Below, one piece after another: positions 948-17,623 of a stretch of DNA of 43,134 nucleotides. The notes beneath the pieces were generated by a model. The model was not told the origin of the DNA. It saw nothing but the letters and a program-made list of their open reading frames with translations, and ran no database searches. The position numbers and the translations under genes are program-made. This DNA comes from Candidatus Thorarchaeota archaeon (lineage in GTDB: Archaea; Asgardarchaeota; Thorarchaeia; Thorarchaeales; Thorarchaeaceae): the NCBI GenBank assembly GCA_030593165.1, contig JAUVHR010000002.1:1-43134 (forward strand), given 5' to 3'. How positions within the stretch are numbered: the stretch's first letter is position 1; every line of letters starts with the position of its first letter.

Positions 948-956
948 TCGTACTGT

Positions 957-1388
957 TCAGTGGAGAACGATTGGAATCTCCATCGGGGAACCATTGGCAA
1001 GAATGAAAGCTCTGTAAACCCACTCGCCTGTGCTCTTTGATGCAATCAGCCAGATAACTGGATTGAGCTGCATGTTTCGAATGTCCCTTGACGAAGGTTG
1101 TGGTAGAGCAGGATGAGAATGGAAGATTGCGACCAAGTGCTCGTCACGGGATTCGGCATTCAGCATAAGTTTCCACTGTTCTTCAGGGTTCACCATGAAT
1201 GATGTCCTACCTGAATCGGAAACATTCTGCACTTGTTCCACACCGGTGACTACACAGGTGCTTTGTTCATACCTTCCAAAGAGAAGGGCGACAGACTCCA
1301 GTGGCAAATCCGCTTCTGCGTAAAGCAGCAGTTGTTGGATGTCCTTGCCGCAGATTCGTAGCTTGGTTTGTTTCAACTGCGATTCCAA
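957..1388 (-). CDS. JAB/MPN (JAMM) domain metalloprotease
   Basis: The JAMM metal site 'FHSHPALPQPSSRD' (HxHx7Sx2D) is present, with an upstream conserved Glu in 'PLESVALLFG'. 143 aa, a stand-alone MPN size. Confidence 0.8.
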   Translation of the reverse strand: MESQLKQTKLRICGKDIQQLLLYAEADLPLESVALLFGRYEQSTCVVTGVEQVQNVSDSGRTSFMVNPEEQWKLMLNAESRDEHLVAIFHSHPALPQPSSRDIRNMQLNPVIWLIASKSTGEWVYRAFILANGSPMEIPIVLH

Positions 1389-1391
1389 GCC

Positions 1392-1829
1392 TTAGAATAC
1401 GGATTTTATGTCCTCAAGGACTATACATGTTTCAACCTCGCCAACACCAGGTAGTCGTCCAAGCCGCTTTTCCAAGAACTGTCTGAGCTCGGAGAGGTCT
1501 TTTACTGTCACCTTCAACATGAGTCCACATGCACCATCAAGGAAGAAAGCCTCACTTACCTCTTCGAAGTCCTTGACCTTGTCGGCAATTGCAGATGCTT
1601 GTTTCATCATTGTCTTGACCCTAATCACTGCACGAATCTGTTTGCCAGTCTTCAGTGGATCAATCACAACAGTGAATCTTATGATTATCCCTTGTTTGAG
1701 AAGACGTCTTACGCGACGTCGTATTGTGACTTCAGTGCGCTCCGTCTTCTCAGCAATGTCTGAAAAGGATCTTCTCCCATCCTCCTGCAGCATGGAGATT
1801 ATTTGTTCGTCTATTGGATCAAGCTTCAA
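1392..1829 (-). CDS. Lrp/AsnC family transcriptional regulator
   Basis: 145 aa. N-terminal HTH ('RRSFSDIAEKTERTEVTIRRRVRRLLKQGII') followed by a C-terminal RAM-like domain. Confidence 0.85.
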   Translation of the reverse strand: MKLDPIDEQIISMLQEDGRRSFSDIAEKTERTEVTIRRRVRRLLKQGIIIRFTVVIDPLKTGKQIRAVIRVKTMMKQASAIADKVKDFEEVSEAFFLDGACGLMLKVTVKDLSELRQFLEKRLGRLPGVGEVETCIVLEDIKSVF

Positions 1830-1949
1830 GATGATAGCCTCGATTCTAGAACGGATTGGCGCGAGCTAGTTATCGTACATATACCTTCCGAAATATGAAC
1901 GATTCCGAAAGCTTTGATGTATCATATAGAACAGAACCTAGTGTCTGCC

Positions 1950-2786
1950 TTAGAGAACTCGCATCTCATCGTGCAGAATTCTATCCTCTCTACTGGCCAT
2001 CACAGCATATAGTTCAATGTGCTCAACAAGCTGGGTTGCGCTTCGAATCTTACGCTCTAGGAGCTCCTGTATCTGGAAGATTCCTGATACGTTGTTCATC
2101 ACGACCTCAATTCTTACGGTCTTCTCCTCGCCCTTCTTTATGATGACTCGTTCGATTGACATAGCTGATGCTGAATGGATGTTCACACTACCTGCCTCAA
2201 AGGGTATTCGTGCCCGACCCTTTGTCATGTCAGTTGCATCAGCGATTCCTGTTACGCCTGCTTCAACTGTTTCGGGACGAACGTGCTTGTCATGACAGTA
2301 AATCGCATGGAGAATCTGTCCTCTGACGTGCACACATTTGTGGATGTTTCGTGGGTAGACCTTTGCCAGAATTCTATCCAAGATTGGTGTTGCCAAGGCC
2401 ACTGAGAATATGTGATGTTCATCTCTGTGTATTCCCATTCCTATGTCGTGTAGGTAGCAGGACATCAGTACTATGAGCTGTGCATCTTCAAATGAGCCAG
2501 TCCCTTCCTTAACAATTGTCGGCTCAATTCCTGAGCGAAGTGTGTTCAAGAGTTTCATGCCGTTCATACTCACTATGAGTGAGTGAGTATGGCCATGGTC
2601 TGAGTAGCCCATCCGGTCAATTGCCATTCTGTTTGAGTCTTCCAACATTGTTTGGACTTCTATATCTCTCTCAAGTAAATCGAATGCAGTGGTACAGAGT
2701 TTGTTGTCCTTGAAGAGTTTCCTAACTCTCTCCTTCAGGGGATGCTTTGTCTTATTCCTTGATTTCTTAGGTTGTTTCCTAGTCAT
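1950..2786 (-). CDS. HD-domain metal-dependent phosphohydrolase
   Basis: 'SDHGHTHS' and 'YLHDIGMGIH' give the H..HD signature. I placed the start at ATG 2786, which has a GGGGGT Shine-Dalgarno-like box 9 nt upstream. The longest ORF runs to 2852. Confidence 0.65.
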   Translation of the reverse strand: MTRKQPKKSRNKTKHPLKERVRKLFKDNKLCTTAFDLLERDIEVQTMLEDSNRMAIDRMGYSDHGHTHSLIVSMNGMKLLNTLRSGIEPTIVKEGTGSFEDAQLIVLMSCYLHDIGMGIHRDEHHIFSVALATPILDRILAKVYPRNIHKCVHVRGQILHAIYCHDKHVRPETVEAGVTGIADATDMTKGRARIPFEAGSVNIHSASAMSIERVIIKKGEEKTVRIEVVMNNVSGIFQIQELLERKIRSATQLVEHIELYAVMASREDRILHDEMRVL

Positions 2787-3156
2787 ATTGCTGGTACCCC
2801 CTCGTTCTTTTCTAATGTATCCTGCCCCTCTTAGAGATATTTCTTTGCACAACCAAATAGTAGTGTACGTTTTCGATCTTGGTCCAGAATTCTATCAGAT
2901 TCTGTTTGGGAGTTATTCATTGGACCCAAGGAGTAGGGTGGATTGATTACGAGTATTTCCAGTTACATGAAAATTATGTTTTTGATTGCTTTATTATCTA
3001 TAGGTTGGTGCACACCTTCACTCTGCATTTCTAGGAGTGAAACTGATCACGTACATCCCATTAGTACATCTAATCAACATGAATCAAGAGAAGGGAGTTG
3101 TCCTGAAGTCAGTTGATATTCAACTACGCAGATTGTACCTGTACTGGTTTTTCCTC

Positions 3157-4005
3157 TTAATCTGACTGAGACTTCGACTTGGTACTAGAGGTCCTCACAA
3201 AATAGACAGTGATGAGTGTAAGATAAGCAGCATAGGCAATGACTTCCAGAGCGGATGGGTTCCCATTGTATCCAAGGAGTGCCTTTGCTAGTCCTCCGAT
3301 TAGCCCTTTGTCATGCAAGAGAGGATAACTTCCATCAGGAAGTAGTGGAGGATTGATGTTCCACACCTCAAGTGGACCGATTAGAAGTAATCCTGCCTCC
3401 TGCAACTCATGTATGCCATATGCAATCATCCCAGCTGCAAAGAGAACAAGGAGAACAGATGTCCAGTGGAAGAATGATTTGAAACTTATCCTTAGAGAAC
3501 CTTGGTATAATGCCGCACCTGTTATGGCGGCCAAAGCTAGACCTAGGGCCACACCCACATATGTTACAGCTCCATCTTGTATAGCAAGAGCAGCAGCAAA
3601 GAGTACAATCTCCACACCTTCACGCAGGACTAGGGCAAATGCCAGCATTGCCAGGCCAAGACCACTCTCACGTTTGGTACTTGTTCTCATTGAGTCTTCA
3701 ATCTCAGAAGTTATTCGTGAACCTGCGTTCCGCATCCATATTATCATAGTCGTCAGTAGAAGTGCAGCAATTAGGACTACAGAACCTTCAAACATATTGA
3801 GCATTGGTCCTTCAAAGACTCCCCATACCATGGCCATTATGAGAGCAATCGAGATACTTGCTGCAATAGCCAGTACCGTTCCAGCCAATACGTAACGTTT
3901 CAGATCAGTCCGATTTATTTTCCTTAGGTAGAGTAGCATTATCGAAAGGACCAAAGCTATCTCGATACCCTCGCGTAGTGCAATAATTGTGGGTGTGATT
4001 ATCAT
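3157..4005 (-). CDS. FTR1/EfeU-family high-affinity iron permease
   Basis: Two REGxE motifs ('REGIEIALVL', 'REGVEIVLF') lie in a polytopic membrane protein of 282 aa. Confidence 0.8.
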   Translation of the reverse strand: MIITPTIIALREGIEIALVLSIMLLYLRKINRTDLKRYVLAGTVLAIAASISIALIMAMVWGVFEGPMLNMFEGSVVLIAALLLTTMIIWMRNAGSRITSEIEDSMRTSTKRESGLGLAMLAFALVLREGVEIVLFAAALAIQDGAVTYVGVALGLALAAITGAALYQGSLRISFKSFFHWTSVLLVLFAAGMIAYGIHELQEAGLLLIGPLEVWNINPPLLPDGSYPLLHDKGLIGGLAKALLGYNGNPSALEVIAYAAYLTLITVYFVRTSSTKSKSQSD

Positions 4006-4182
4006 TTTGACCAGTTCCTGTGTTCAGTTATGTTCACTATAGTTAAATATTATTGGATTAGTCCTAATTGGCTTACATTATTGTCATCTCTTTGACTCTT
4101 AGGTCGAAAGAAATAGTGATTGTTTGATTAAAGCGTGAAAAATACCCCTATTATAGGAAAAACGACTCAGAGTAGATGACAG

Positions 4183-4674
4183 GTGATTGTGTTGAATGAA
4201 TTGAGTGGCTCAATAAGCAAATCTCGATATCTTTTCGAGGTTATCTACAGACCAATTATGTGGGGAGTGGGAACAGCAGCTCTGGTGTGGATTGGGTTCT
4301 CAGAAATTGATATGTTAACTGCATTCTTTGTAGGACTCTGTGTTGGTCTGGTACATGATTTGTATCTTGTGAGCATTGGAGTAATGGCGTATAAGCCGAG
4401 GATAGTTGGAATAGCTTATCATAACAAATTTGTTGAAGCGATGAAACTCTTTGAAGCAAGGAAATGGCAGCAAGCATTAGATTTGCTTGAGGAAATCTTG
4501 GAAGTGGACCCTCTGGCCAAAGAACCATTGTATTTCGCGATAAAGTGTTCGGAAAACTTGGAAAGGTGGGACCTATTATCAATGTACTCTGAAAGATATC
4601 TGAAACAATACCCTGATGATCAAGAAGTGCAAGACAGACTGAGATTGGCCTTGGATTGGATGAATAATACCTGA
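4183..4674 (+). CDS. Hypothetical membrane protein with a C-terminal TPR-like helical region
   Basis: 163-aa ORF with a GTG start. It has two hydrophobic helices near the N-terminus and then helical-repeat-like sequence. No family was recognised. Confidence 0.45.
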   Translation: MIVLNELSGSISKSRYLFEVIYRPIMWGVGTAALVWIGFSEIDMLTAFFVGLCVGLVHDLYLVSIGVMAYKPRIVGIAYHNKFVEAMKLFEARKWQQALDLLEEILEVDPLAKEPLYFAIKCSENLERWDLLSMYSERYLKQYPDDQEVQDRLRLALDWMNNT

Positions 4675-4692
4675 AGGGCATTAGTGTTATTG

Positions 4693-5103
4693 TTAGAGTC
4701 TAATCGGGTTCGGTCCTATCGCTCTTATCTCATCTGCGAACTCGTTGATATACGCCGCAAACTTGTCACCCTCCGCCGCTGACACCATCACCATCCTCAC
4801 GCGACCCTCATTCATTCCTAACTGGCCAACAAGCTTCTTTGCGAATCTGACTCTCCGTTCTGCCCCCAAGTTACCAGTCTTGTACGCACAGTCGCCAGGA
4901 TGACACCCTATGACCAGCACGCCGTCCGCACCCTCCTGCAGCGCCTTCAAGATGAAGTTGATGTCCAGCCTCGCGGTGCACGGCATTCTGATTATCCGCA
5001 CAGTGCCGTCGTACTGTAACTTCATCGTCCCCGCTAAATCGCTCGCTGCATACATACATTGCATACATCCCATGGCTATGATTTTCATGTCCTTCGGGGG
5101 CAT
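4693..5103 (-). CDS. mvhD: Methyl-viologen-reducing hydrogenase delta subunit (MvhD/FlpD family), stand-alone
   Basis: 136 aa. MvhD pattern: 'IIAMGCMQCMYAASDLAG', 'RIIRMPCTARLD', 'GADGVLVIGCHPGDCAY'. Confidence 0.85.
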   Translation of the reverse strand: MPPKDMKIIAMGCMQCMYAASDLAGTMKLQYDGTVRIIRMPCTARLDINFILKALQEGADGVLVIGCHPGDCAYKTGNLGAERRVRFAKKLVGQLGMNEGRVRMVMVSAAEGDKFAAYINEFADEIRAIGPNPIRL

Positions 5104-5213
5104 AATGAAGTCATTCCTTTAGCAGATGGATTTACGCTCATCTCTACCCGCCATATAATCTTTCAGATTAGTAGGAGGATTTTGATACGATCGGCTGCAT
5201 GCACTGACCTGTT

Positions 5214-7064
5214 TTAAGAGTCTAAGAAAGGTGAGTGAACACCCTCTAGAACCTTCGACTTCCGTGTTCCACCCTTCCCATGACAGTCGTCACCAACTGG
5301 AACCAAGGCCGCCCCTGGTCCTTCGTCACAGGCTTCATCCGAATTCATTGGAGCTTCACTCCTCTTTGCAGATTGAGCTTCTGTTCGCTGCACTGAGTTA
5401 CCACTGCTGTCAGATGCCTTTTGGGCGTCAATGGTGGCAGACGATGTTTCCACGGTTTTTTCCATGGCAGGATCGGTAGTGTCGTCAAACGACTCAAGAG
5501 CGGCTTGAATATGACACTCAACCACGGACCGTCCCCTTGAAGCTGACAGCTTCGAGGACGATGAGGACTTCCCTTTAGAGCGCGAACTCCTCCAGGTCTT
5601 CGGGGGATATCTCTCCTTCTCGCGAGGGAGAAGCCAACCCCCTAGTCCATTGGTCTCATCCCGTAAACGGGGAATGAGCTTGATGAGGCGCCTAGCTATG
5701 TTGATGGCACCATTCTTGTCGGCATTGTCGCGATAGCCGCAGGTGTGACAGATGAACAGGGACTGTTTCGGACGGATTCCGATGTGTCCACATTTGTGAC
5801 AGGTCTTGCTTGTCCAATACTCCAAGACTGGAATGAATCGAGAATCTCTCCCCTTCACCTTCCAACCGTGCCTTGTGAGGGAGTGTTTCAAGCCATCGCT
5901 GATTCTAGCAAATGACCATCTCGCCATCAATGCACGAAAGGCTTTGGGTTTCTTACTATCCCTACCAGCTTTCCTCCGAATGTGGGTCAGCTTGCCTATG
6001 GCCACGTAGAGGTCATACTTCTCGGACAACTCAATGATATGGTCTGTGAGTCGTTTGACAAGTACTCTGTCGTGGTCAACACTGATTCGGAGTCTTCGAC
6101 CGCGCAAGCTGCGAAGCTTTCTGACGACCCCGTCTGCTGGTTGACCATTGTTCAGGTGGGTATCCATCTCTCTCTGGAGAGTTGACACGAGATCATCGTA
6201 CTTCTTGATTCTCTTGGCCTTCTCAGGTTGCGTGAAATATCTCACATGTCTGAGCCTAGTCTGAGTCAGAAGAACGGAACAGACGGCTTTGTTGATTCCG
6301 AGATCGATACCCAGTACTGCGGGCGGCTTGTGTGAGCTGTCTTTCTGTGCAGTTTCAACTCTTACAGAGAATACTACCCACCACTTCCGTCTTGAGTCCT
6401 TGAAGAAACGAAGTGATGTCACCCGTCCCTCTTTCAGTCTGTTGAGATGGTAGGAAGACGGGTTCAAGGGAATCATTAGCTTGTCGTGTAACCGTCCCTC
6501 TCTTTGGGCCGAATCAAGGGAGTCCTGAAGCTCGACCCAGTGTTTAACTTCCGATTTTGGAGTATAGACTATCTTGAACCGTCTGTTGAAGACATAGCGC
6601 GGTAGCTTGTGTGGTTTGTAACCACGGGACTTGAGGGGAGGTTCACCCCCGAGTTCAAGATAGCTCTGCCACATGGCGACTGCTACCTGTCTGCATTCCT
6701 GTAGCTCATTCAGTGAGATATTCGGAAATCGCTCCTTGAAGTCGTGAGGGACAACCAGTCTTCGTTGTGATTCCTTCTTGAACCTCTTCGCAGTGAGAGT
6801 CAGCTTCTCGAGCTTTGCTCCACTGATTCTCTTTTTCCTTTTGCCGACAATTAGTTCATCTTCGCGACGCGCAATCACCCCAAGAAAAGCACGAATCACC
6901 CGAGTGTCCCTGCCGGTTATCCTTGACAGACGAGTACGTTGCCTCTCTGTCATGGATTCCCACTTGATAGGAACCTTAACACTGATGATTGTCTTACTGG
7001 AATGACCCAAGCGTTTCACCTTTCCATATAAATCTCCGACCTGTTTCCGGTCAGAGGGTTTCAC
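5214..7064 (-). CDS. tnpB: TnpB-like (IS200/IS605 OrfB / IS1341-type) protein, possibly catalytically impaired
   Basis: RuvC-I 'VLGIDLG' (D254), Zn ribbon 'CHKCGH..CHTCGY' and RuvC-III 'RDNADKNGAINIARR' (D449) are all present. The RuvC-II position reads 'VAIGKL' (G357) instead of an xxExL motif. At 616 aa it is longer than typical TnpB. Confidence 0.85.
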   Translation of the reverse strand: MKPSDRKQVGDLYGKVKRLGHSSKTIISVKVPIKWESMTERQRTRLSRITGRDTRVIRAFLGVIARREDELIVGKRKKRISGAKLEKLTLTAKRFKKESQRRLVVPHDFKERFPNISLNELQECRQVAVAMWQSYLELGGEPPLKSRGYKPHKLPRYVFNRRFKIVYTPKSEVKHWVELQDSLDSAQREGRLHDKLMIPLNPSSYHLNRLKEGRVTSLRFFKDSRRKWWVVFSVRVETAQKDSSHKPPAVLGIDLGINKAVCSVLLTQTRLRHVRYFTQPEKAKRIKKYDDLVSTLQREMDTHLNNGQPADGVVRKLRSLRGRRLRISVDHDRVLVKRLTDHIIELSEKYDLYVAIGKLTHIRRKAGRDSKKPKAFRALMARWSFARISDGLKHSLTRHGWKVKGRDSRFIPVLEYWTSKTCHKCGHIGIRPKQSLFICHTCGYRDNADKNGAINIARRLIKLIPRLRDETNGLGGWLLPREKERYPPKTWRSSRSKGKSSSSSKLSASRGRSVVECHIQAALESFDDTTDPAMEKTVETSSATIDAQKASDSSGNSVQRTEAQSAKRSEAPMNSDEACDEGPGAALVPVGDDCHGKGGTRKSKVLEGVHSPFLDS

Positions 7065-7085
7065 TCAACATCCTTTGTGGATGTT
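5214..7085 (-). mobile_element. Possible IS1341-like (tnpB-only) element or a domesticated remnant; ends not determined
   Basis: It consists of the TnpB-like ORF plus a hairpin (AACATCC-TTTGT-GGATGTT, 7067-7085) just upstream of the start codon. No TnpA (Y1) ORF was found, and no terminal repeats could be identified by eye. Confidence 0.3.
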
Positions 7086-7213
7086 AGGTGATAATCTCCA
7101 CACTTTCATAGAATCAATACCATATAAATCTATGAAGATTATTTGATTAAACTGTGATGTGATGGGCCCACATGGCGCCTAGCTAGGTAATTTGACTACG
7201 AAAAGACCGCGCC

Positions 7214-7222
7214 TTTATATAA
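7214..7222 (+). promoter_or_regulatory. TATA-box-like element (TTTATATAA) upstream of the giant gene
   Basis: The box is only 7 nt from ATG 7229. It sits about 25 nt upstream of the in-frame ATG at 7244, which fits a leaderless transcript starting at M6 ('MASEG..'). Confidence 0.4.
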
Positions 7223-7228
7223 TAAGAC

Positions 7229-10200
7229 ATGAAATGTTATCCTATGGCCTCAGAGGGCACAGAGAAGAGCAGTCCGTCATACCCCTATAGTCCAGCCCGG
7301 GTCATAGCCCGAGCCTACCTCAACGGTCTCTCATCCCTCAGGAATCTTCTACGCGAGCGAGTCACAAAGGACACGAAGGATGTCTACACCCGCACTCAGA
7401 ATCTATGGACCGGGGCCATGAAGAAATGGGAGGAGAGCAAGAAGAGTGGTGACCGTGACTTCTCACACATAACTGGTGTAGAGAGGCACATGAGGCGAAA
7501 CTTCTACGAGATGATCTGGAAGACCACAGCCCCGTTTGGGAACAAGGAGTACAAGCGGGTCCGGAGTGAGAGAACGGGGCAGGTCGGTCGAATGAACCGG
7601 CTGATAAACATGGCCGGGGCGCAGCTGAGAAACTACGTGGTGACACGGTTCCCCTTCCCTGAACCTGAGGTGATTGGACAGAGAGGCGGGAAGCCCATCT
7701 TCGGGTACGGTGAGGATAGTACATTTGGATGGGTCGAGGTGTCACATGCGACTCTGGGAGAGCTTGACTTTGCGGACATGATCAGGTCACATGTTCTCGA
7801 GCTCTGTCGTAAGTGTTTCATCTATGATGTGCCGATGAACGCAGCCAGAAGGTATGTGAGTCTCCTCATCTGGCGGCTGTCACCATTCCTGGAGTATCTC
7901 TACACCTCTGGTGAGTCGGGAAGGTGGGGATTCGCAAGGTCGAGAAGAAAGGAGGGTAGAAAGAAGACAGGACCTGATGCGGATAAGATTCTGAGAGAGA
8001 TTGTGGCTGAGATCGAGTCGATCTATGGCACACGCACTGGTCGACCCAAGGTGGTCACCGAGTCTGTTGAGGCGTCCAGACAGACTCTGAACAAGTCCTT
8101 CTTCAAGGAACAGATAGAGGAGTTGAGGAGGGTCAAGAAGGATGTTTCAAGAGAAGAGAAGGAGTGCAAAGAGATCTGGGCGGACCTCTTGGACTGTTAC
8201 TGCAGGCGTGGTATTCTTCGTGATGAAGATGCCAAGAGGATGCAGGAGGAAACTGTCAGACGTGCCAGATGGCAAGGTATTCGCTGGCACAGGTTGATGT
8301 CGAACGGACTCCCACAACCATTCGGTCTGGAGTCTGTGGTTCTTGACGGGGACTCTCTGGCAGACGAGGGTGATGAGTGGCTGCTGGTAGCCGAGGTTCC
8401 TGTGACAACAGAGCTGGGAGAGGGGCGTGCGGACTTGGTCATGTTCAAGCGGTATGTGATCCAGAATCCAAGACTGCCATCTCAACTGGTAGTCTGGAAA
8501 CCTGTGGCAGTGTTTGACATCAAGAGTAAGACTGCTTTTGACTGGGAGATTATATCGAAGGAAAAGGTTTCAAAGAAGCATGGCAAGATGGCCATACCCG
8601 GATTCATCCTTCGGAGACGTTCTCTCACTGAGAGCGAGTGGGATGCCGCAGTCAAGGATACTCCCAGAAAGGATGAGAAACAACAGCTTGAAGCGTACGC
8701 CAAAGGGCTTGCGAAAGAATATGGTAAAATCACTGGTGATGTAACTCCGGTTTCGTCACTCACTGGGGTAATCGTTCTCGATACTACTCAGGACTCGGCT
8801 CAAGTTCGTCCTGTAATGTGGAAACTAGTCAAGGAGCTTTGTAGGAATGCTCCAGCTCAATTGCGACGTCGTCTGGATAAACATGTACTGATTGTCATTA
8901 AGGACGAAACCCTAGACTTGTTGAAACTCACAGCCGTGGTAAAGAGCAGTAAGGACCAGCTTGAGTTGATTAGTGAGAAGGGTCATCCACTGGAGACTGT
9001 AAGTCCCTATAGTCCCCATGACGAGTCTACCCAGAGCAGAAACGGGCGTTTCGTCCTATATCTTGCTGTTAACTCGGCATCAAGGTCTGGAATCTCTGCT
9101 ACGTGGATAGCAAGATACTGGCATGGGTTAAGGCTAGTTCAAGACCTCAAATCGGAGGTGTCCTGCTCCAAAGTGATATGGTTGGACCTAGCCGGAGATC
9201 TTGGACATGGACCCTTGGCTGAAACAAGATTGGGATTATCCCAACACCTTCAACAGATTCGTGAGCTGTTTCGCACATCCAAGATCCGGGACCTCTCTTC
9301 AGTTGTTCATGATTTTCTCTTCAGAGGACAATCACTACCCACCCTTGAGGAGATGATAGGAGAGGAGTTGGAGGGATTACGTGATCAAATCGTAGTTGTC
9401 AGTGGATGGAGTCTGTTAAGGAGTGTAGTGCCGCCTAGGCTTCGCTCCGCGCTCTCTGAGTTGGAACGTATCTTGGCTGTTGAGTTGAGGCAGACAGGAA
9501 CCACTGTAGTATGGTTTGGTGAGCCTGAGATAACAGAGCTCACTTCATCCCTGCATCAGAGAAGGTCAGTAATACCATTTGCCGACAGGTCATTTCTTAG
9601 TGGTGTGACCACAGACATTGTCTGGAATCTGCCCATCCGACCCTATGCTTCGGGCCAATTGACTCCTCTGCTTGATGACCTCAGAGTCATAGTCAGTGAG
9701 GATGGAACCAATGCATCCTTTGATCTGGTGGAGATTCAACCTCTTCAGAATTGGTCGTCGAGATTCTGGAATGTTACAAGGGAGTCTATCAGTTATTCAC
9801 CCCGCAAGAGGAGAGGTAGAAGTCCTATTCGAACAATCGATGTGTTGCAGGATGCTGCACTTCAAGAACAACTCATTCGAGATTCTTTGGAACTCGTACC
9901 ATGGTGTAGGAATTACTTGGAGGAGGAAGTAGTACAGGACGGCTCTTCAATGACTACCAAGCTGAAGACGTATTCCTTGAAAAGAGGTCTTGGAACACGT
10001 ACATCTGGGGGACATCGTCTGACATACAGGACGAGGATGCCAACTTCTAGACACGGGAAGTCCTACATGCCTCTGAGAGATATTATCCCAAAGGCACTGA
10101 TTACACATCATCGCGGCTACAGGGAGATTCTAACTCCTACCAGCAACAAGAAGAGCGTTCATAGGCCGCCTAATGAGGCTCTGGTGAGATTTCACGGATT

Positions 10201-12628
10201 CAGCGAGAAGAGAGCTGAGTACATTGAACTCAAACACATCTCGCAGGTTGTCAAGACGCTCCTGCAATCATGCGAGAAAAACACCACGGATATAGAAGAG
10301 GATTGGACTGGATTCTTGAAGAGATTAGGATCACTTGTAACAACAGATCAGAAAGCAAATCGTAGTAGAGTCTTGAATGATATTGTGAATCTCCTGCAGA
10401 CGGACCCAATATCCGTTCAATTATGGGACACTATGGGATGGATGCGTGGGACTCGAATGACGGAGGGGTTGAACCCACAAGACCATGAGATGTTGGAGGA
10501 CCTGTTGAGTGCCAGACCGCATCTTACTCTCTCTTACGGCAACTATCTGTTCCTTATGCTTCTGGGACTTGTAAGGGAGTTTCCGTCACTGACTGAAGAG
10601 CATCTCAAACAATTATGGGACATGTTGAGACCTTGGCAACTCAAACAGATGAGTTTCAGACATACTATGGAAGAGGAATCAGAAGAGAGTGTGTCAAGAT
10701 TCGACATTCGAGCGGTCTGGGCTAACTTGAGAAAGCGAGTGAAGACAATGGTCGCTCGGCCTGTTCCGGAATCCGCCTCTATTAGGTATGGTCAGTTCTT
10801 GGTGTATACAAAGGATGAGGACGAATCCGCGTATAGTATGGTACTCGAGGAGAGGTACAATCGAGAAAGGATGCTTGTTGGAGTTTGGGTGGGATCCGAG
10901 CCCCTTATGCTCAAGTCTTCTATGAGCTGGGCCACGACTAATAGGGATGAGATTGTGGGATGTCTGTTGAACCATAGTAGTCCATCTGGGACTTACGATA
11001 TCGCAGTGAGCAATCATTCAGGGGATGACTACCTCTGGATATGTAATGAGGGTGAATGGGCCCTTCAGGGGAAACTTGATCTTGTCAGACAGAAGAGAGG
11101 TTCAGTTACTGGAATCCGTGGATTGTGTGTGTCGGAATTCACTCAGCAGGGTATCTCAGTAGTGCCAAGGGGGCTTCAGGCTCCATCAGAACTTGGCACG
11201 AAAGTGCAGCGAAGGCTTACTCAAGTCTTTGACTGTTTCAAGTTGTGTGTAGCAAGTTGTGTTTCGTTGGATATTGACTCGGAGGGTTATGTGGTCAGTT
11301 TCTGCGACCTAGATGACGGTGAGCTAGTCGACAAAAGGGTCATCCAACGAACCTCAGAGCTCATTGCCTTACTTCGCACTCCAGTTGTGACAGGACTCCC
11401 ATTACGAAGCTCAAGAGATTCAGAGGTTTACTTGACTTGGAGGTTGTATGATGATATTGACTATGGTGAGCTTCAACTCTTCAAGCCATATGTTGAGCGG
11501 AAGACTCCATTTGTACATGTACGAATGATATTGCCTCAGACAGCATCTGATCTGATGAGCCGTGATGTGGAACATATTACTCTGACAGTAACACATGACG
11601 AGTCATTATGTCCCGTCAAGAACAATGGTACAGACAGACATGATGCATGCTGGCGCATTGGAATTCCTGATGATGTTGATGATTCCTTTCTGAAGGAACT
11701 CAGTACCAGGGGGATGGCCGATAACGAGATTCTGAGTCTGATATCTTCAGGCAAGGTGTTTCTTGAGGGTGCGAGCTATGATTTTGATCACATATTTGAC
11801 CCTGAGCTTCATACAAGAGAAGCTGTGGTGTTCAGAGAGAGCAGCTACTTCGCCCGCAAGTTCGAAACAAAAAGAGTGAGTGCTGGTACGTACCTTCAGA
11901 TAGAGTCAGAGAAACTGGTCTGTATCTTACGCAAAGAGAATCGGGATATAGTGCTCAATGTCAGGTCAGACATAACTGGTGAAGAGGTCTATTCATGGAT
12001 ACTAGTGACGATGGAAGAGGGTGTGGGAATTCAAGATGCAATGATAGACGCTGAGGCCAGACTTCAACAGATTGTAGATGACCACTTTGGAGAGGGTCAT
12101 GGGCTTGGAACTCGAATAGACGATTATGAGCAGGTTGCTGAGAACATCAGGGAAATGCTTCAGACGATGTATGTTTCAGACCTTAGAGAGTCTGTCTTTG
12201 CGGATAGTGGAATGGACCATGGTGCACTTGAAGAACTTCTTCAGTACTACAGGGACCAGGCGGAAGAAGACCCGACCCTTGAGATAGAAACCGCTTCAGT
12301 CCTTCATGAGGTTGCACAACTGTTGATTGAACAGGACGAACTAGATGAGGCAAGTGCTGTGATTGAGGAGTGTATTGAAATTCTCGAGAGTTACCTGAAT
12401 AAATGGGACACTGATTCCGTCCGAATAGATCTCTCAGAGATGTTGGTATTGGGAGTAAGAGTAATGATGTCGAGGGAGGGTGAAAATCTAGACAGTGATT
12501 CAGTAGAGCGGAACCTCAAGAGAGCAGTGAAACTCAGCGAGGGGATTACTACTCATGGTCATCCTCATTCTCAGGCCAAGAGAATTGTTGCTGAAGCAAA
12601 AGAATTGCTTGTACAGATTGGAGAATAG
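7229..12628 (+). CDS. Giant orphan protein (1,799 aa) with a PD-(D/E)xK-type nuclease motif and a C-terminal acidic helical-repeat region
   Basis: An uninterrupted 5.4-kb ORF. The nuclease-like motifs are 'GRAD402LVMF', then 28 aa later 'VFD430IK432SK', then 'Q486LEAY490'. No P-loop was seen. The last ~160 aa are helical, acidic and TPR-like. The start may be ATG 7244. Confidence 0.8.
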   Translation: MKCYPMASEGTEKSSPSYPYSPARVIARAYLNGLSSLRNLLRERVTKDTKDVYTRTQNLWTGAMKKWEESKKSGDRDFSHITGVERHMRRNFYEMIWKTTAPFGNKEYKRVRSERTGQVGRMNRLINMAGAQLRNYVVTRFPFPEPEVIGQRGGKPIFGYGEDSTFGWVEVSHATLGELDFADMIRSHVLELCRKCFIYDVPMNAARRYVSLLIWRLSPFLEYLYTSGESGRWGFARSRRKEGRKKTGPDADKILREIVAEIESIYGTRTGRPKVVTESVEASRQTLNKSFFKEQIEELRRVKKDVSREEKECKEIWADLLDCYCRRGILRDEDAKRMQEETVRRARWQGIRWHRLMSNGLPQPFGLESVVLDGDSLADEGDEWLLVAEVPVTTELGEGRADLVMFKRYVIQNPRLPSQLVVWKPVAVFDIKSKTAFDWEIISKEKVSKKHGKMAIPGFILRRRSLTESEWDAAVKDTPRKDEKQQLEAYAKGLAKEYGKITGDVTPVSSLTGVIVLDTTQDSAQVRPVMWKLVKELCRNAPAQLRRRLDKHVLIVIKDETLDLLKLTAVVKSSKDQLELISEKGHPLETVSPYSPHDESTQSRNGRFVLYLAVNSASRSGISATWIARYWHGLRLVQDLKSEVSCSKVIWLDLAGDLGHGPLAETRLGLSQHLQQIRELFRTSKIRDLSSVVHDFLFRGQSLPTLEEMIGEELEGLRDQIVVVSGWSLLRSVVPPRLRSALSELERILAVELRQTGTTVVWFGEPEITELTSSLHQRRSVIPFADRSFLSGVTTDIVWNLPIRPYASGQLTPLLDDLRVIVSEDGTNASFDLVEIQPLQNWSSRFWNVTRESISYSPRKRRGRSPIRTIDVLQDAALQEQLIRDSLELVPWCRNYLEEEVVQDGSSMTTKLKTYSLKRGLGTRTSGGHRLTYRTRMPTSRHGKSYMPLRDIIPKALITHHRGYREILTPTSNKKSVHRPPNEALVRFHGFSEKRAEYIELKHISQVVKTLLQSCEKNTTDIEEDWTGFLKRLGSLVTTDQKANRSRVLNDIVNLLQTDPISVQLWDTMGWMRGTRMTEGLNPQDHEMLEDLLSARPHLTLSYGNYLFLMLLGLVREFPSLTEEHLKQLWDMLRPWQLKQMSFRHTMEEESEESVSRFDIRAVWANLRKRVKTMVARPVPESASIRYGQFLVYTKDEDESAYSMVLEERYNRERMLVGVWVGSEPLMLKSSMSWATTNRDEIVGCLLNHSSPSGTYDIAVSNHSGDDYLWICNEGEWALQGKLDLVRQKRGSVTGIRGLCVSEFTQQGISVVPRGLQAPSELGTKVQRRLTQVFDCFKLCVASCVSLDIDSEGYVVSFCDLDDGELVDKRVIQRTSELIALLRTPVVTGLPLRSSRDSEVYLTWRLYDDIDYGELQLFKPYVERKTPFVHVRMILPQTASDLMSRDVEHITLTVTHDESLCPVKNNGTDRHDACWRIGIPDDVDDSFLKELSTRGMADNEILSLISSGKVFLEGASYDFDHIFDPELHTREAVVFRESSYFARKFETKRVSAGTYLQIESEKLVCILRKENRDIVLNVRSDITGEEVYSWILVTMEEGVGIQDAMIDAEARLQQIVDDHFGEGHGLGTRIDDYEQVAENIREMLQTMYVSDLRESVFADSGMDHGALEELLQYYRDQAEEDPTLEIETASVLHEVAQLLIEQDELDEASAVIEECIEILESYLNKWDTDSVRIDLSEMLVLGVRVMMSREGENLDSDSVERNLKRAVKLSEGITTHGHPHSQAKRIVAEAKELLVQIGE

Positions 12629-12760
12629 CAGACGACTTTGTTTACTGTGATATCATGATAACTATCACCCAAGAATAATTTCATCGGGACTTTTGTAGGT
12701 CTTAGTGGCCTAATAGCCTAACCATAAGTTTATTAGGCGTCGAAGGTACCTAACGCTTAG

Positions 12761-13585
12761 GTGTGTACTTTGGACCGTGATTATGAAAGTGTACAAATCG
12801 CAACTCCTGCAGTGACAATGGAAACAGTGGGAAAAGTTACGAGAGGACTATTCTCCTTCAAAAAACGTGCCACATACAAGGATTTAGCAAAACTAGTCGG
12901 TTTGCACGAAATCACTGTGAGTAAAGGTTTTAGTGCTGCGAGAGACCTTGGCCTAATGGAAACGACAGGTGGCAGAGGAGTATACATACTAACAAGTGTG
13001 GGCGAGAATTTTGCAAGGCTACTGGATTTTGGGAAAGAGGTGGATTGTCGAACACTGATTGCTAAGCAGATTATCGAATTGGAGAACTGGAGTGAGATAG
13101 TCACGTTTCTGGAGATTAATCGGGGCATTCCCAAGAATCCCCTAGATTTGGTTTTGCATGTAGAAGGAAGACTAGGGAAGCGATGGAAGAGTAGAATGCG
13201 CACGAAGATTGCCAGATCGTACAGGTCGATTCTTGAATATGCAGGCCTGATAGAAATTGATGATGGGAACATTATATCGATACTATCTATGGGGGGAGAA
13301 TCCGAATTACTGGGCCCATCTGATGGCCAAGAACCTGCAAAATCACCAACTGAAACCGGAACCTATTCTTCATCTATTTCTAATGTAAGGATGTTGACAG
13401 ATTACGCTGAGTTCGGTATTCCCGACTTCTTTGTCGTATTTGTTAAGAAAACACCTAGTGCTGTAGACTTCTTTCGAAAGCAAATTGCGAATAGTAGTCT
13501 CTTTGTGGCATGGCTTGATACCTTACAAAATGAGCTTGAAAAGAAATCATTGGAAGAGAATTTTGATAATGAGGAAGGGGACTAA
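12761..13585 (+). CDS. Tandem winged-helix protein, paralog A (274 aa)
   Basis: It aligns clearly by eye with ORF 14099..14899 ('IATPxxTM', 'ARxLGL', 'WxEIVxFL', 'DLVxHVE', 'YRxIL', 'DYAExxIP', 'WLD'). Two wHTH-like segments are present. The start is GTG 12761 or TTG 12770. Confidence 0.7.
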   Translation: MCTLDRDYESVQIATPAVTMETVGKVTRGLFSFKKRATYKDLAKLVGLHEITVSKGFSAARDLGLMETTGGRGVYILTSVGENFARLLDFGKEVDCRTLIAKQIIELENWSEIVTFLEINRGIPKNPLDLVLHVEGRLGKRWKSRMRTKIARSYRSILEYAGLIEIDDGNIISILSMGGESELLGPSDGQEPAKSPTETGTYSSSISNVRMLTDYAEFGIPDFFVVFVKKTPSAVDFFRKQIANSSLFVAWLDTLQNELEKKSLEENFDNEEGD

Positions 13586-14106
13586 TGACAGAAGAAGAGA
13601 AGCCAACCTTAGTTCCTACTTCAAGTATGAAGTTTGAGAAACATGTCTTGATTCTCAGAGCATATGTCGTCTTGACTGATAATGGGAAATCACCGGTCCA
13701 CTACAAGACTGTGATGAAGATGACACGACTTGCAAGAACGCAAATCTCTGGTACTAACGCCTTCTTTGTTGGACTAGGCCTTCTTCGAAAGGTCGATGAA
13801 GGAATATACAATCCAGTTGATCAATCCGTTCTCTTTATTGGTGAAAAACCTGGAGATGAGGACTTTTCCGTTCTGAAACCAGTTCTACAATATTCTGCTT
13901 TATACCGATTTATTAAGGGATTGATAAGAATACACGGGACTGTCACTGTTGATGATGCTGTTTCCTTCTTACTTGAGGAGTCTGGAGAGAAGTCGCCCGA
14001 GCGCGCGAAACGGGCCCTTGAGTGGTTGGAAAAGTGTGGTCTCATGTCGACTGTGGACGATGAAATCACATTAATTGATATCAAGGAGGGGATAGGAAGT
14101 GTCTGA
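13585..14106 (+). CDS. Tandem winged-helix protein, short member (173 aa)
   Basis: Its ATG shares 1 nt with the preceding TAA (TAATG). Two wHTH-like segments are present ('HYKTVMKMTRLARTQISGTNAFFVGLGLL', 'VTVDDAVSFLLEESGEKSPERAKRALEWLEKCGLM'). Confidence 0.65.
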   Translation: MTEEEKPTLVPTSSMKFEKHVLILRAYVVLTDNGKSPVHYKTVMKMTRLARTQISGTNAFFVGLGLLRKVDEGIYNPVDQSVLFIGEKPGDEDFSVLKPVLQYSALYRFIKGLIRIHGTVTVDDAVSFLLEESGEKSPERAKRALEWLEKCGLMSTVDDEITLIDIKEGIGSV

Positions 14107-14899
14107 TGAGAAGACCTCGCCTAGGATTGCGACACCAATCCAGACAATGGGAACAATTAGACGTGTGATTGAAGGCCTCTACAGGTACAAGAAAACGGCT
14201 AAAGGAACAGAATTCTCGACGCACGTGGGGATGCATTATAGTGAAGTAGGCAAAGCCCTAGGAGATGCTAGAAGTCTTGGGCTTGTTGCAGATGGGGAAG
14301 AGTATGGATCATTCATTCTGACTGACGAAGGAAGAAAGTTCGCAATACTTCTGGGCCATGAAAAAGATGATGAGTGTGGGCAGTTGCTTGCAGAACTGAT
14401 TCTGAGTTCCCCTGAGTGGATTGAGATTGTCCTATTCCTGAAAGAACGTATCGGACAGCCTTTTGACATTGCTGACTTGGTGGTACATGTCGAGCAAAAA
14501 CACGATAAATCATGGAGCAGTGGTAGACGTAAGAAGGCGGAAAGAGCATATAGAACAATTCTCAGCTTTGCCAATATCGTTCGGATTGAGGGGGGCATGT
14601 TGGTGCCAACATCAATTCTGGATGACAGCCACCAGTCAGAACAAATTACTATAGATAGTATTGATACTGGTTTGGCACACACGCTTCACGCAAGCTTCAG
14701 ATCATTGCAGTCCACACTGACTAAGACTAAAAATCCGGATTATGCAGAAGTCACTATTCCAAAATTGTTCACATTGAGCGTGAATATGTCCAGAGAAGCT
14801 GTAGAGTATGTTCGGGAACAACTGTCCAAAGAGAGTATGTTGAACGTGTGGCTCGATGAAATCGAAAGTTGTTTGGAATCCGAAAGTGAAATAGATTGA
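14099..14899 (+). CDS. Tandem winged-helix protein, paralog B (266 aa)
   Basis: The GTG start overlaps the previous ORF by 8 nt. It is a paralog of ORF 12761..13585 along its whole length. Confidence 0.7.
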   Translation: MSDEKTSPRIATPIQTMGTIRRVIEGLYRYKKTAKGTEFSTHVGMHYSEVGKALGDARSLGLVADGEEYGSFILTDEGRKFAILLGHEKDDECGQLLAELILSSPEWIEIVLFLKERIGQPFDIADLVVHVEQKHDKSWSSGRRKKAERAYRTILSFANIVRIEGGMLVPTSILDDSHQSEQITIDSIDTGLAHTLHASFRSLQSTLTKTKNPDYAEVTIPKLFTLSVNMSREAVEYVREQLSKESMLNVWLDEIESCLESESEID

Positions 14900-15137
14900 C
14901 GAAACAAGCAGTACATTCATTCGGATTTCAATTGCTTGAAACCCAGAGTCTGAAATAGTGCTATCAATCGATTGGTAATTTCGTGTGCTGTATCATCAGA
15001 TGATTTTGATTTCACTGTAAAGGTAATTCTGATATCCAGCTCCACTTCTGTTTCTCGCGTAGATCCTTCTTCATGCTTTTTGAAAAGGCATCAATAGAAA
15101 TATGAGTTAGTGATGTAAGTTTGAGGAAGGGGACTTT

Positions 15138-17114
15138 ATGGAAAAACTTCGGATTCCAATAGGGATTTCTTCAGATAGGTTGCTTTCTGTTTTGTCAGCA
15201 TGGTTCAGAACAGCGGGAGAAAGTGGAGAGTACTCAACAAGTGAAGTAGAGAAGAAGACCAAAGAAAAGAAACAAACCCTTCAGAGACAGAGCCCGTTCC
15301 TTGTTCAAATCGGGATTCTTGAACAAGTTGGTTCTAAATACAAGCTAACAGATAGAGGAAAACAAGTTACAAGATACGTGGAGTATGAACAATGGAATGA
15401 CTTCAAAGAAGTAATGAATAATCTAGTATTTGATTGGAAAGAATCTCAAGTTCTTTTTGAATACATTCACGAAAATGAACCTATTGAAATCACGACCTTG
15501 ACGAAACGTATCATGATGTATTCAGGGCGTGCTTCTTCCGATACGAATGTGTGGATGGGAGCGAATGCACTTCTGGGTATTCTGGAAAAAGCTGAAATTC
15601 TACAAATTTCCGAAAGTAGAGTCAGCCTTTCGGATGATTTTTTGAGAAAACGTCAAGGTGGAGTGGATGATTGGGGTCGTTCAGGTTTCACGAAACCTGA
15701 GGACAAGATTTCGATAACTAGTATTGTTATTCAGAATATTAAATCTCTCTTAAAAGTTGAATTTCCTGTCAAGAAAATGAACATCCTTATCGGGAAAAAT
15801 TCATCTGGAAAGTCATCTGTATTGCATGCTTTACTTGCTCTTAGATGCTTAAAATGGGGATCTACTCATGCCAGTAGTTCCTTTCATGATTTTCGCTGGC
15901 TTCATCGAAAGAACGCAATTGGACCAATGTTTCTGTCACTGAATGGTTCTGTAACAAATAGGAATGAGATTACTCCATTCAAGTTTAGAGTGTCATTCTC
16001 TATCACAGGATCATACTGCACCCAATTGTGCATTTATGATGGGTTGGATAGATTATGTGACACTTCCCTGTTTTATAGAAGACAAGATTTGTGGATACCC
16101 TTCAACCAGTATGATGGTTTAGAGGAACTAGAGGAATTGCGGGATAATATGCAGGAAGGCCTCATTCAGCTTTCTGAAATGTTGGAGAAGTATACTGATA
16201 CAGACCCAGCGAGTGAAACATCCTCGGATTCTAATGATGAACATAACTTCTCACTAATGATGGATAACAAAGGGAGTAGAGAGCAGACCTATCTTCCACG
16301 ACGTTTTCTGGGAGCATGGACAGGAATCTTACCTGAGTATCTGAGAGAAACCACAATGGAATCTCTGCGACTTGGTTACATGGTAAGTAGATCAGGATTA
16401 AGTAGATTTGTTGATAATATCGAGTTTATTCCCGCAGTGAGAGGCTTCTTTTCTATTGATTATCAACAAAGAGATACCCCCCCCGAGAGAATTCCTGATG
16501 ATTTGAGTTTCGTCACATATTTCCTCAGTAAGCTGATTTACAGCGATCATATTGTTGATGATGATTTAGAGGATATTAAAAAATGGGCAGCAATGTTTGG
16601 AATTCCTGGATTTGAGGCATTAGTACAACCAGGTCCAAAAGTAGAAGGCAGGGGTCGAATTTATGATGGCAATGAAACATTGCCAGTCGCATTGTATGGA
16701 TTTGGATCTAATCAGTTTTTGACTGTGGTTGGCAAATGCATTCTTGCACCGAGAAATGCGCCAATTCTCATAGAGGAACCCGAGATACATCTTCATCCTG
16801 AACTTCAAGCACTATCGGCTGATTTCTTGATTGAAATGATGCAAAGGGGGCACCAAGTTTTTGCAGCAACGCATTCAGAACATCTAATCGCAAGAATTCA
16901 GAGGAGAATTGCTGATGGGACGATAACTCCAGATGATGTCGCTATTCTTTGGATACACTTGGACGATGAGAGTCAAGGTACATCAATTGAAGAAGTGAAT
17001 ATCAGTGATGATGGTATAATTTATGGAGGACTGCAAACATACCTTCGATTTCTTGAGAGTGAGTTAGTGGAAATTGAACTTGCAAGACAGGCTAGAGAAC
17101 AGGAAGAGGAATGA
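15138..17114 (+). CDS. Tandem-wHTH module fused to an ABC/OLD-type (AAA_15/AAA_21-like) ATPase
   Basis: The N-terminal ~170 aa repeat the architecture of the three upstream wHTH proteins. Walker A is 'G219KNSSGKS226' (15792-15815). The Walker B/D-loop block is 'ILIEEPEIHLHPELQ...FAATHSEHLI' (from 16764). A GGAAGGGGA SD-like box precedes the ATG. Confidence 0.8.
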   Translation: MEKLRIPIGISSDRLLSVLSAWFRTAGESGEYSTSEVEKKTKEKKQTLQRQSPFLVQIGILEQVGSKYKLTDRGKQVTRYVEYEQWNDFKEVMNNLVFDWKESQVLFEYIHENEPIEITTLTKRIMMYSGRASSDTNVWMGANALLGILEKAEILQISESRVSLSDDFLRKRQGGVDDWGRSGFTKPEDKISITSIVIQNIKSLLKVEFPVKKMNILIGKNSSGKSSVLHALLALRCLKWGSTHASSSFHDFRWLHRKNAIGPMFLSLNGSVTNRNEITPFKFRVSFSITGSYCTQLCIYDGLDRLCDTSLFYRRQDLWIPFNQYDGLEELEELRDNMQEGLIQLSEMLEKYTDTDPASETSSDSNDEHNFSLMMDNKGSREQTYLPRRFLGAWTGILPEYLRETTMESLRLGYMVSRSGLSRFVDNIEFIPAVRGFFSIDYQQRDTPPERIPDDLSFVTYFLSKLIYSDHIVDDDLEDIKKWAAMFGIPGFEALVQPGPKVEGRGRIYDGNETLPVALYGFGSNQFLTVVGKCILAPRNAPILIEEPEIHLHPELQALSADFLIEMMQRGHQVFAATHSEHLIARIQRRIADGTITPDDVAILWIHLDDESQGTSIEEVNISDDGIIYGGLQTYLRFLESELVEIELARQAREQEEE

Positions 17115-17623
17115 ATTCTATGGCCTGCAATGGTTTGGCAGTCATCCTTGATACATCAGTTTTTGTTTGCTGTTTCAAGCTAAGAGAAGATTATGGAAAT
17201 ATAATAAATAAAATTAGAGAGGACGGTTTCTATATCGTGATTTGCCCTTCTATACGGCAAGAGTATGTAAGACATATGTATGGAAGATCTGCATCATCTC
17301 ATTGGTTAGTGCGGCAGCATCTAGATGATTTACAAAAAGATGGGGTTCTGGTTTATGCAAGACCTATAGAGGAGAACGAAATAGAGATTCAAAGGAAAGA
17401 TCAACATGTGATAGATTGTGCTTTTAATAAGACATGCAGAGTTCACTTGATTATCACTGATAACGCAAAAGATTTTGTTTCAAAAACTAAGCAGTTTAGA
17501 ATTCCAGTGATAGTTCAACCAAGGAATTTTCTTGAGAAGAATAATAGAGAAAATCTTTGTAGTGAAATACGACGGTTACTATCTGAAGAGAAAAAGATTG
17601 GGAAGTCTGTAGTAATTCACTAG
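17111..17623 (+). CDS. PIN-domain nuclease
   Basis: An ATGA overlap joins it to the ATPase stop. The PIN acidic residues are 'VILD14TSV', 'RQEY', 'VIDCA' and 'IITDNAKDF'. 170 aa. Confidence 0.75.
   Translation: MNSMACNGLAVILDTSVFVCCFKLREDYGNIINKIREDGFYIVICPSIRQEYVRHMYGRSASSHWLVRQHLDDLQKDGVLVYARPIEENEIEIQRKDQHVIDCAFNKTCRVHLIITDNAKDFVSKTKQFRIPVIVQPRNFLEKNNRENLCSEIRRLLSEEKKIGKSVVIH

Follow-up and report, generated by a model that had tools for sequence, protein, structure and literature searches.

The closest published counterparts of the locus described here are the aCas1–TnpB loci, whose aCas1 (Asgard Cas1) was reportedly defined by Makarova et al. in the CRISPR Journal in 2020. Our locus lies in a stretch of 43,134 nucleotides (nt) from a Candidatus Thorarchaeota archaeon (contig JAUVHR010000002.1, positions 1–43,134, hereafter the window) and comprises a giant open reading frame (ORF), a divergent TnpB-like gene and an omega-RNA-like element that overlaps the 3′ end of the latter. 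In the parts of Altae-Tran et al. (2023, PNAS; PMC10691335) that concern such loci, aCas1 is considered the probable transposase of a separate family of transposons, the associated TnpBs fall into two Asgard-linked groups (Cas1H-Asgard-1 and -2), a hypervariable region and then the motif GTTCACTCA are found downstream of tnpB, and the loci are flanked by repeats. This kind of element has already been noted computationally in the literature and is functionally unexplored; beyond the aCas1 work, our literature search found no further description of the giant-protein family. We lean toward reading the giant ORF as the multidomain integrase/nuclease of a Thorarchaeota two-gene element of the aCas1–TnpB type, located beside an active TnpB and its omega-RNA. 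The two genes are the following:

7229–12628, plus strand: giant ORF, 1,799 codons and a stop without interruption; probable true start at ATG 7244, giving 1,794 amino acids (aa).
5214–7064, minus strand: TnpB-like partner ORF, 616 codons as listed, matching Pfam Cas12f1-like_TNB (1.8e-13) and NCBIfam guided_TnpB (4.6e-24).

As far as the published loci are characterized in the relevant parts of that paper, ours shares with them the restriction to Asgard archaea (here Thorarchaeota), the existence of two TnpB types, a RuvC-II motif with a Glu-to-Gly exchange and an alternative Glu, a RuvC-III motif NADxN, a variable stretch with GTTCACTCA on the 3′ side of tnpB, and the behavior of a discrete multi-copy unit. 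It differs in that the reported flanking repeats are seen neither around the window copy nor at the ends of a 7.66-kb unit defined below, and in that the ‘hypervariable region’ behaves here as a covarying hairpin arm. We found no mention, in the same parts, of a PD-(D/E)xK site, a RecA-fold domain or an overlap of omega-RNA and ORF. Since the locus features match the published ones and no neighbor other than the giant gene is conserved, the giant protein most probably corresponds to the published aCas1, an equation reached by elimination and from a weak profile alignment.

The original prediction, made from this DNA alone, described a single unbroken ORF of 5.4 kb, as we also find, and took its product for an orphan. 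The latter does not hold, as there are about 190 clusters of relatives, almost all from Thorarchaeota. A word-indexed search returned 27–30 clusters with members of 1.6–1.9 kaa (the names given, for a minority of the matches, are all Thorarchaeota), and an HMMER profile search of 1.84 billion representatives returned 192 proteins at E ≤ 1e-3, 144 of them at E ≤ 1e-30. Among species-representative genomes, the family is present at 72 loci in 36 metagenome-assembled genomes (MAGs), nearly all labelled Thorarchaeota, with one to five divergent copies per MAG. No curated library or structure-database sequence (Pfam, NCBIfam, PADLOC, PDB) recognizes it. The module was also found on short contigs (2.5–7.8 kb) at loci L028, L074 (MAG labelled Ignavibacteria) and L076 (labelled Woesearchaeota); the occurrences under the latter two labels most likely reflect mis-binning rather than horizontal transfer.

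The pairing of the giant gene with a TnpB-like gene is obligatory. A divergent TnpB/Cas12f-like gene of 560–765 aa was present in all six contexts inspected, syntenic and unrelated alike, and in 41 of the 41 loci with enough upstream DNA, with a median gap of 206 nt. Two partner types can be distinguished. Type A, which includes the window gene, has the RuvC-I Asp, the Glu-to-Gly exchange in RuvC-II, a C4 finger and the RuvC-III motif NADxN (each in 44–46 of 46 sequences). Type B retains the canonical FEDL and is 715–765 aa long (loci L005, L023, L025, L033, L037, L041, L047, L052, L059, L061, and L079). TnpBs of the RIIr type with the same RuvC-II exchange are regarded as rearranged but probably active in the part of PMC10691335 that treats them. 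We had also considered a nuclease-dead TnpB and rejected it, as a compensating Glu is known for such variants (same part of that source) and an alternative Glu, in ‘PE.WTS’, was found in 46 of 46 type-A sequences. To judge from these motifs, the RuvC domain of the window-type TnpB appears active in a rearranged form. A crude clustering resolved no co-phylogeny of giant-protein clades with partner type. The listed GTG start of the window gene (7064) is probably too far upstream, with relatives beginning at the equivalent of L19 (~7010).

The 3′ part of the type-A gene is associated with an RNA structure, of which three parts can be placed in the window:

5205–5570, minus strand: structured omega-RNA-like element of ~365 nt, recognized by covariation, overlapping the last ~120–150 codons of the TnpB-like ORF.
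5240–5232, minus strand: GTTCACTCA motif in the loop of the terminal hairpin, present in 37 type-A loci.
5185–5204, minus strand: flank just 3′ of the RNA scaffold, GTGCATGCAGCCGATCGTAT, the expected guide position, judged from IS200/IS605 omega-RNAs.

Over the last ~350 nt of the type-A ORF, the nucleotide sequence is conserved, while the stop codon shifts in position, lying either after GTTCACTCA or ~100 nt before it. In an alignment of 37 loci, compensatory double changes occur at 35 of the 48 predicted pairs, and broken pairs are few; therefore, the low-complexity tail of the TnpB protein may largely be a by-product of the RNA. The stretch before GTTCACTCA pairs with the stretch after it (window 5225–5260, minus strand; alignment columns ~370–425), and cognate arms pair better than non-cognate ones (mean stem 5.8 versus 4.6; none of 2,000 permutations reached the observed value). 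Because it pairs and covaries with the sequence after GTTCACTCA, the ‘hypervariable region’ of PMC10691335, as far as described there, looks like the arm of a terminal hairpin and not like a spacer. Conservation across loci ends at ...AGGTYA, which in the window is ...AGGTCA at 5205, where the element putatively has its right end. The sequence at the expected guide position is local flank and differs between element copies. Type-B partners do not have the GTTCACTCA hairpin and show another conserved terminus of ~45 nt (...GTCCAACTTACAATGAACGGTT); hence one giant-protein family goes with RNA or end architectures that differ between the two partner types. A second GTTCACTCA-like copy at 7059–7067 was dismissed, being no more than expected by chance.

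The TnpB/giant pair behaves as a discrete unit of ~7.7 kb. A block of 7.66 kb with 75–80% nucleotide identity occurs in three copies with unrelated flanks, two of them in one MAG, and it extends with sharp ends from the last bases of the RNA (TA|) to the stop codon of the giant gene. Some copies end a few to ~40 nt from the 3′ end of a tRNA gene:

L004 7076–7150 and L049 1103–1180: tRNA-Gly(tcc) adjoining the element.
L059 3388–3464, L061 and L079: tRNA-Lys(ctt) or a tRNA-like sequence adjoining three type-B copies.

The 3′ ends of tRNA genes are a typical integration target of integrase-driven elements and a known type of casposon target. With the OMEGA systems of IS200/IS605 and IS607 elements and with type V-K CRISPR-associated transposons (CAST), the unit has in common an RNA-guided RuvC nuclease, an omega-RNA whose sequence overlaps the gene's 3′ end and runs to the element boundary, and a second protein that presumably serves DNA breakage and joining. 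Here, however, the second protein is a giant multidomain protein and not a Y1 or serine recombinase or TnsB/TnsC/TniQ, the two genes are divergent, and the TnpB RuvC domain appears active (rearranged), unlike that of Cas12k.

The giant protein contains two sets of nearly invariant residues that may be catalytic. The better supported one lies in the following segment:

8327–8782, plus strand: RecB/Cas4-like PD-(D/E)xK segment (aa ~367–518) with E389, D402, D/E430-x-K432, Q486xxxY490 and a beta-hairpin insert, assigned by invariance and predicted secondary structure.
8420–8446, plus strand: EGRADLVMF (aa 398–406).
8504–8530, plus strand: VAVFDIKSK (aa 426–434).
8678–8698, plus strand: KQQLEAY (aa 484–490).

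The original prediction had proposed a RecB/Cas4-like nuclease from three short peptides and from residues D402, D430, K432, Q486, and Y490, all of which are located where it placed them, and it had asked whether these residues are conserved. In 27 homologues with 23–50% identity, E389, D402, K432, Q486, and Y490 never vary, and only Asp or Glu occurs at position 430. The same five positions named in the prediction are kept in 91 of 91 representatives (again with Asp or Glu at 430), and E389 in 89 of 91. Given this near-complete invariance in both sets, the D...(D/E)xK...QxxxY series is, at the level of sequence, a selected feature far beyond chance. An AlphaFold2 model of aa 6–905 (mean predicted local distance difference test, pLDDT, 86; predicted template-modelling score, pTM, 0.85) places the nuclease residues in the order alpha-beta-beta-beta-(hairpin)-alpha-beta, with Q486 and Y490 in a predicted helix, and this predicted order fits a PD-(D/E)xK core. 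The model also contains a beta-hairpin insert at aa ~436–464, ahead of the QxxxY helix, which accounts for the unusually long K-to-Q spacing already remarked upon in the prediction.

Searches for the fold itself gave a different result. Sequence searches of Pfam, NCBIfam, PADLOC and PDB, run with profiles as well as with the protein alone, returned no usable nuclease match (none at E ≤ 10 in Pfam and NCBIfam), a comparison with Synechocystis Cas4 by hhalign scored 15.2, which 2 of 40 shuffles also reached (not significant), and in Foldseek searches of the N-half model against PDB and BFVD the best 50 matches listed all concerned the RecA fold of another domain. The assignment to the RecB/Cas4 clade therefore stands on motif invariance and predicted core order and not on fold or profile searches, which recovered no nuclease. 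Judged by conservation, a functional PD-(D/E)xK site of the RecB/Cas4 type is strongly supported. With Cas4/RecB nucleases the segment shares the ordered invariant series E...GxxD...(D/E)xK...QxxxY and the predicted alpha-beta-beta-beta-alpha-beta core. It differs from them in lacking detectable profile similarity and the four-Cys iron-sulfur cluster that marks Cas4 proper (the consensus of aa 367–518 has no conserved Cys), in the 28-aa spacing from D to DxK, in the beta-hairpin insert before the QxxxY helix, and in its context of 1,800 aa.

The second set of residues lies in the N-terminal domain, which is the best conserved part of the giant protein:

7436–8008, plus strand: core of a mostly helical N-terminal domain (aa ~70–260), candidate Cas1-like catalytic domain according to residue conservation, AlphaFold2 and hhalign.

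Here, E85 is kept in 77 of 78 sequences, N123 in 79 of 79, H173 in 78 of 79, D180 in 78 of 80, D183 in 77 of 80 (with Glu in the other three), and R186 in 80 of 80. AlphaFold2 gives the domain a pLDDT of ~90 and predicts a helical N-terminus. An hhalign comparison of a 79-sequence profile of the domain with a small Cas1 alignment (types I-D, I-F, and I-E) is colinear over Cas1 positions 123–297 and brings the Cas1 Glu, DPVN, His and DxxE..R into register with E85, N123, H173, D180/D183, and R186. Its score of 25.9 (E 0.007, probability 5%) was reached by none of 40 column shuffles (14.6 ± 2.8). Only this deeper query scored above all shuffles; in a shallower version of the test the first shuffle control gave p ~0.1, and with a shallow Cas1 profile the probability was 0.1–3% with inconsistent registers. 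A homology search seeded with Escherichia coli Cas1 collected only I-E proteins of at least 77% identity and thus made a poor Cas1 profile. Taken together, the alignment is suggestive, though weakly, of a Cas1-like second site. With casposases and Cas1 proteins the giant protein shares a candidate E-H-D(E) set with DPVN-like and DxxExxR-like motifs in the same order, the likely role as integrase of a self-contained element, and the location of some copies at tRNA 3′ ends. It differs in its marginal similarity, in having no N-terminal beta-sandwich, no Cas2, no PolB and no terminal inverted repeats, and in being about five times larger. The presence of a nuclease site beside a Cas1-like site in one polypeptide also recalls Cas4–Cas1 fusions, although the order, Cas1-like and then nuclease, is reversed in the giant protein.

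The remaining ~1,700 aa had been regarded as unrecognizable in the original prediction. Apart from the N-terminal site, we found two further recognizable parts in this portion, namely a domain with the RecA/KaiC fold and a C-terminal tail, which flank a conserved region without recognizable relatives:

9041–9748, plus strand: RecA/Rad51/KaiC/DnaB-fold domain (aa ~605–840), from Foldseek against PDB and BFVD and from residue counts.
10205–12088, plus strand: conserved C-terminal half without recognizable relatives, from an AlphaFold2 model and the family consensus.
12116–12625, plus strand: acidic, helical, tetratricopeptide repeat (TPR)-like tail (aa ~1630–1799), from Pfam TPR_10 (E = 0.036) and Foldseek TPR matches.

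Foldseek aligned the RecA-like domain with Rad51 paralogues, DnaB, KaiC, and RadA in PDB (E 2e-4 to 1e-2, target-normalized TM score up to 0.5) and with phage DnaB/RecA-like proteins in BFVD (E ~1e-4). Its P-loop is degenerate (S-x-T/S-S-S-G), with the Lys in none of 93 sequences and no Walker A motif GxxxxGK[ST]; in agreement with the prediction, regular expressions for Walker A and for the DEAD box gave no match in the giant ORF. A Walker-B-like WLDLxG is present, with D653 kept in 90 of 93 sequences. The domain is probably a scaffold for DNA binding or oligomerization rather than a canonical ATPase. The C-terminal half (AlphaFold2 model of aa 876–1799, pLDDT 81) consists of a disordered linker, a helical domain (aa 993–1176) with the motifs GNYLFLLLL and WQLxQxG, and beta-rich domains (aa ~1185–1620), and it has no match to a PDB fold or sequence besides the tail. 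A TPR-like C-terminus had been predicted; Pfam and Foldseek agree for the window protein, but the tail is missing from most relatives and is not a trait of the family. The sequence HDExxCP...H(G/D)xCW at aa ~1456–1475 (window 11594–11653, plus strand) resembles a small H/C metal-binding knuckle; it is kept in the main clade and missing from a divergent subgroup (P0022–P0026).

The two genes are separated by a short region that presumably contains both promoters:

7065–7228, between the two genes: divergent promoter region common to the giant gene and the TnpB-like gene, with TATA-like boxes; the gap is conserved in 41 loci.
7214–7222, plus strand: TATA-like box of the giant gene, TTTATATAA.
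~7122–7131, minus strand: second candidate TATA-like box, on the side of the TnpB-like gene.

The box at 7214–7222 lies ~22 nt 5′ of the second ATG and only ~7 nt 5′ of the first, for which reason the giant gene probably starts at the second ATG (7244, M6) and is transcribed as a leaderless mRNA. The public gene call of 1,794 aa agrees with this start.

The left flank of the window (1–5103) is syntenic with loci L001 and L002. There, the left flank contains genes for RNase P p30/Rpp14, JAB, AsnC, and HD proteins; both loci also have FlpD, and L001 has FTR1. In the window only FTR1 (3157–4005) and FlpD (4693–5103) are annotated. The order at the shared position is RNase P subunits ... FTR1 ... 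FlpD, followed by the divergent TnpB and giant genes. The right flank is variable, which places the module at the edge of a variable island, and the downstream genes at 12761–17623 fall outside the conserved unit. They include:

15138–17623, with 12761–13585 and 14099–14899, plus strand: candidate defense module with an AAA_15/AAA_21 ATPase and a PIN_3 protein.

The ATPase has weak N-terminal similarity to PtuA and to the retron Eco8 effector. Two paralogous proteins of ~270 aa precede the ATPase and the PIN_3 protein, one of them with a weak Crp-type helix-turn-helix. This downstream module is common only to the syntenic Thorarchaeota locus L002/L013.

In the reading toward which we lean, the giant protein would combine a Cas1-like N-terminal domain, a PD-(D/E)xK site, a RecA/KaiC fold and ~650 aa of conserved domains without known relatives, and would act as the integrase or transposase of the element, i.e., as its aCas1. 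The PD-(D/E)xK site would cut or trim DNA ends and the Cas1-like site would join them, while TnpB with its omega-RNA would cleave guide-matched DNA and thereby favor homing or retention in the manner of IS200/IS605 elements. Several observations weigh against this. The similarity to Cas1 is weak, as the low hhalign probability indicates; the window protein has no Cas1 match in Pfam or NCBIfam (PF01867/TIGR00287), a TIGR00287 match in 1 of 17 family members (E = 0.23) was not reproduced with full-length sequences, a Cas1e hidden Markov model gave no signal (family members score no better than reversed sequences), and the N-terminal beta domain of Cas1 is missing from the giant protein. The nuclease fold was recovered neither by Foldseek nor by profile comparison. 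That the giant protein corresponds to aCas1 is something that we infer. Finally, we found neither terminal inverted repeats nor target-site duplications around the window copy or at three compared ends, nor any convincing direct or inverted repeats in window 4900–13200 or at the termini of the 7.66-kb unit, and the window copy shares its chromosomal position with two relatives whose giant proteins are only 32–50% identical, which points to long-term vertical inheritance and not to recent movement of this copy.

The last two observations would suit a domesticated, immobile system of RNA-guided defense or regulation, in which TnpB and omega-RNA find a DNA target and the giant protein is recruited as effector or processor to degrade or remodel it by means of its nuclease and RecA-like domains, comparable to the recruitment of Cas3 by Cascade. 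Also in its favor, copies lie in variable islands by defense-type genes (AAA_15 and PIN in the window; SLFN/AlbA_2, NucS/SduA-like and toxin–antitoxin pairs beside copies elsewhere), and the several old, divergent paralogues per genome resemble a diversifying defense family. We nevertheless consider it unlikely, while ranking it first among the alternatives, as sharp-ended copies of the 7.66-kb block occur in unrelated surroundings, conservation breaks off precisely at the 3′ terminus of the RNA, as would be expected of a transposon end, the expected guide position is occupied by local flank that differs between copies, and PMC10691335, in the parts that concern these loci, favors a transposon.

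Next in order, and very doubtful in our view, is a guide-writing machine akin to CRISPR adaptation, in which the Cas1-like and Cas4-like sites would install captured DNA beside the omega-RNA as new TnpB guides, which would make the locus an intermediate form linking OMEGA systems with type V CRISPR. The combination of both sites in one protein, reminiscent of Cas4–Cas1 fusions, speaks for it, as do the resemblance of GTTCACTCA to the 5′ end of a CRISPR repeat, the suggestion by the authors of PMC10691335 (in the same parts) that the adjacent stretch is spacer-like, and a second GTTCAC-containing stretch, found in many loci close to the 5′ portion of the scaffold. That adjacent stretch, however, covaries with the sequence after the motif, as expected of a hairpin arm rather than a free spacer, and is nearly identical in many paralogues of one subclade; the window itself contains no CRISPR array or tandem repeat, nor any Rfam match. 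A stand-alone nuclease or sensor of a conflict system, independent of the TnpB gene, had been the functional idea of the original prediction and would fit the large size, the invariant nuclease motif, the TPR tail of the window copy and the island-like neighborhood, but it is hardly credible now that 41 of 41 loci keep a divergent TnpB partner at a constant short distance in otherwise different neighborhoods, with no PADLOC match and a tail that is not conserved.

Going beyond the integrase/nuclease reading, the giant protein might link an active TnpB with both an integrase site of the Cas1 family and a Cas4-like nuclease, either for RNA-guided, Cas1-catalyzed integration (CAST-like, as an independent Asgard invention) or for guide writing beside the omega-RNA. 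We regard this coupling as rather improbable. If guide writing were true, the locus would represent a living transitional form between OMEGA elements and the adaptation of type V CRISPR. The published reading of these loci is revised in one respect: the ‘hypervariable region’ seems to form one arm of a hairpin and to covary with the other. The locus offers several handles for experiments, namely two invariant sets of candidate catalytic residues, a RecA fold without the P-loop Lys, the extent and structure of a guide-RNA scaffold, and the putative right end of the element. If the integrase/nuclease reading is correct, the window contains a full and, as it appears, undamaged copy of an Asgard element that has received little study, in which an RNA-guided nuclease goes together with a giant enzyme that has two different sites for cutting or joining DNA. 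It would then bear on two open questions: the role of TnpB in elements without the usual TnpA, and how enzymes of the Cas1/Cas4 type used in adaptation were first linked with the ancestors of Cas12.

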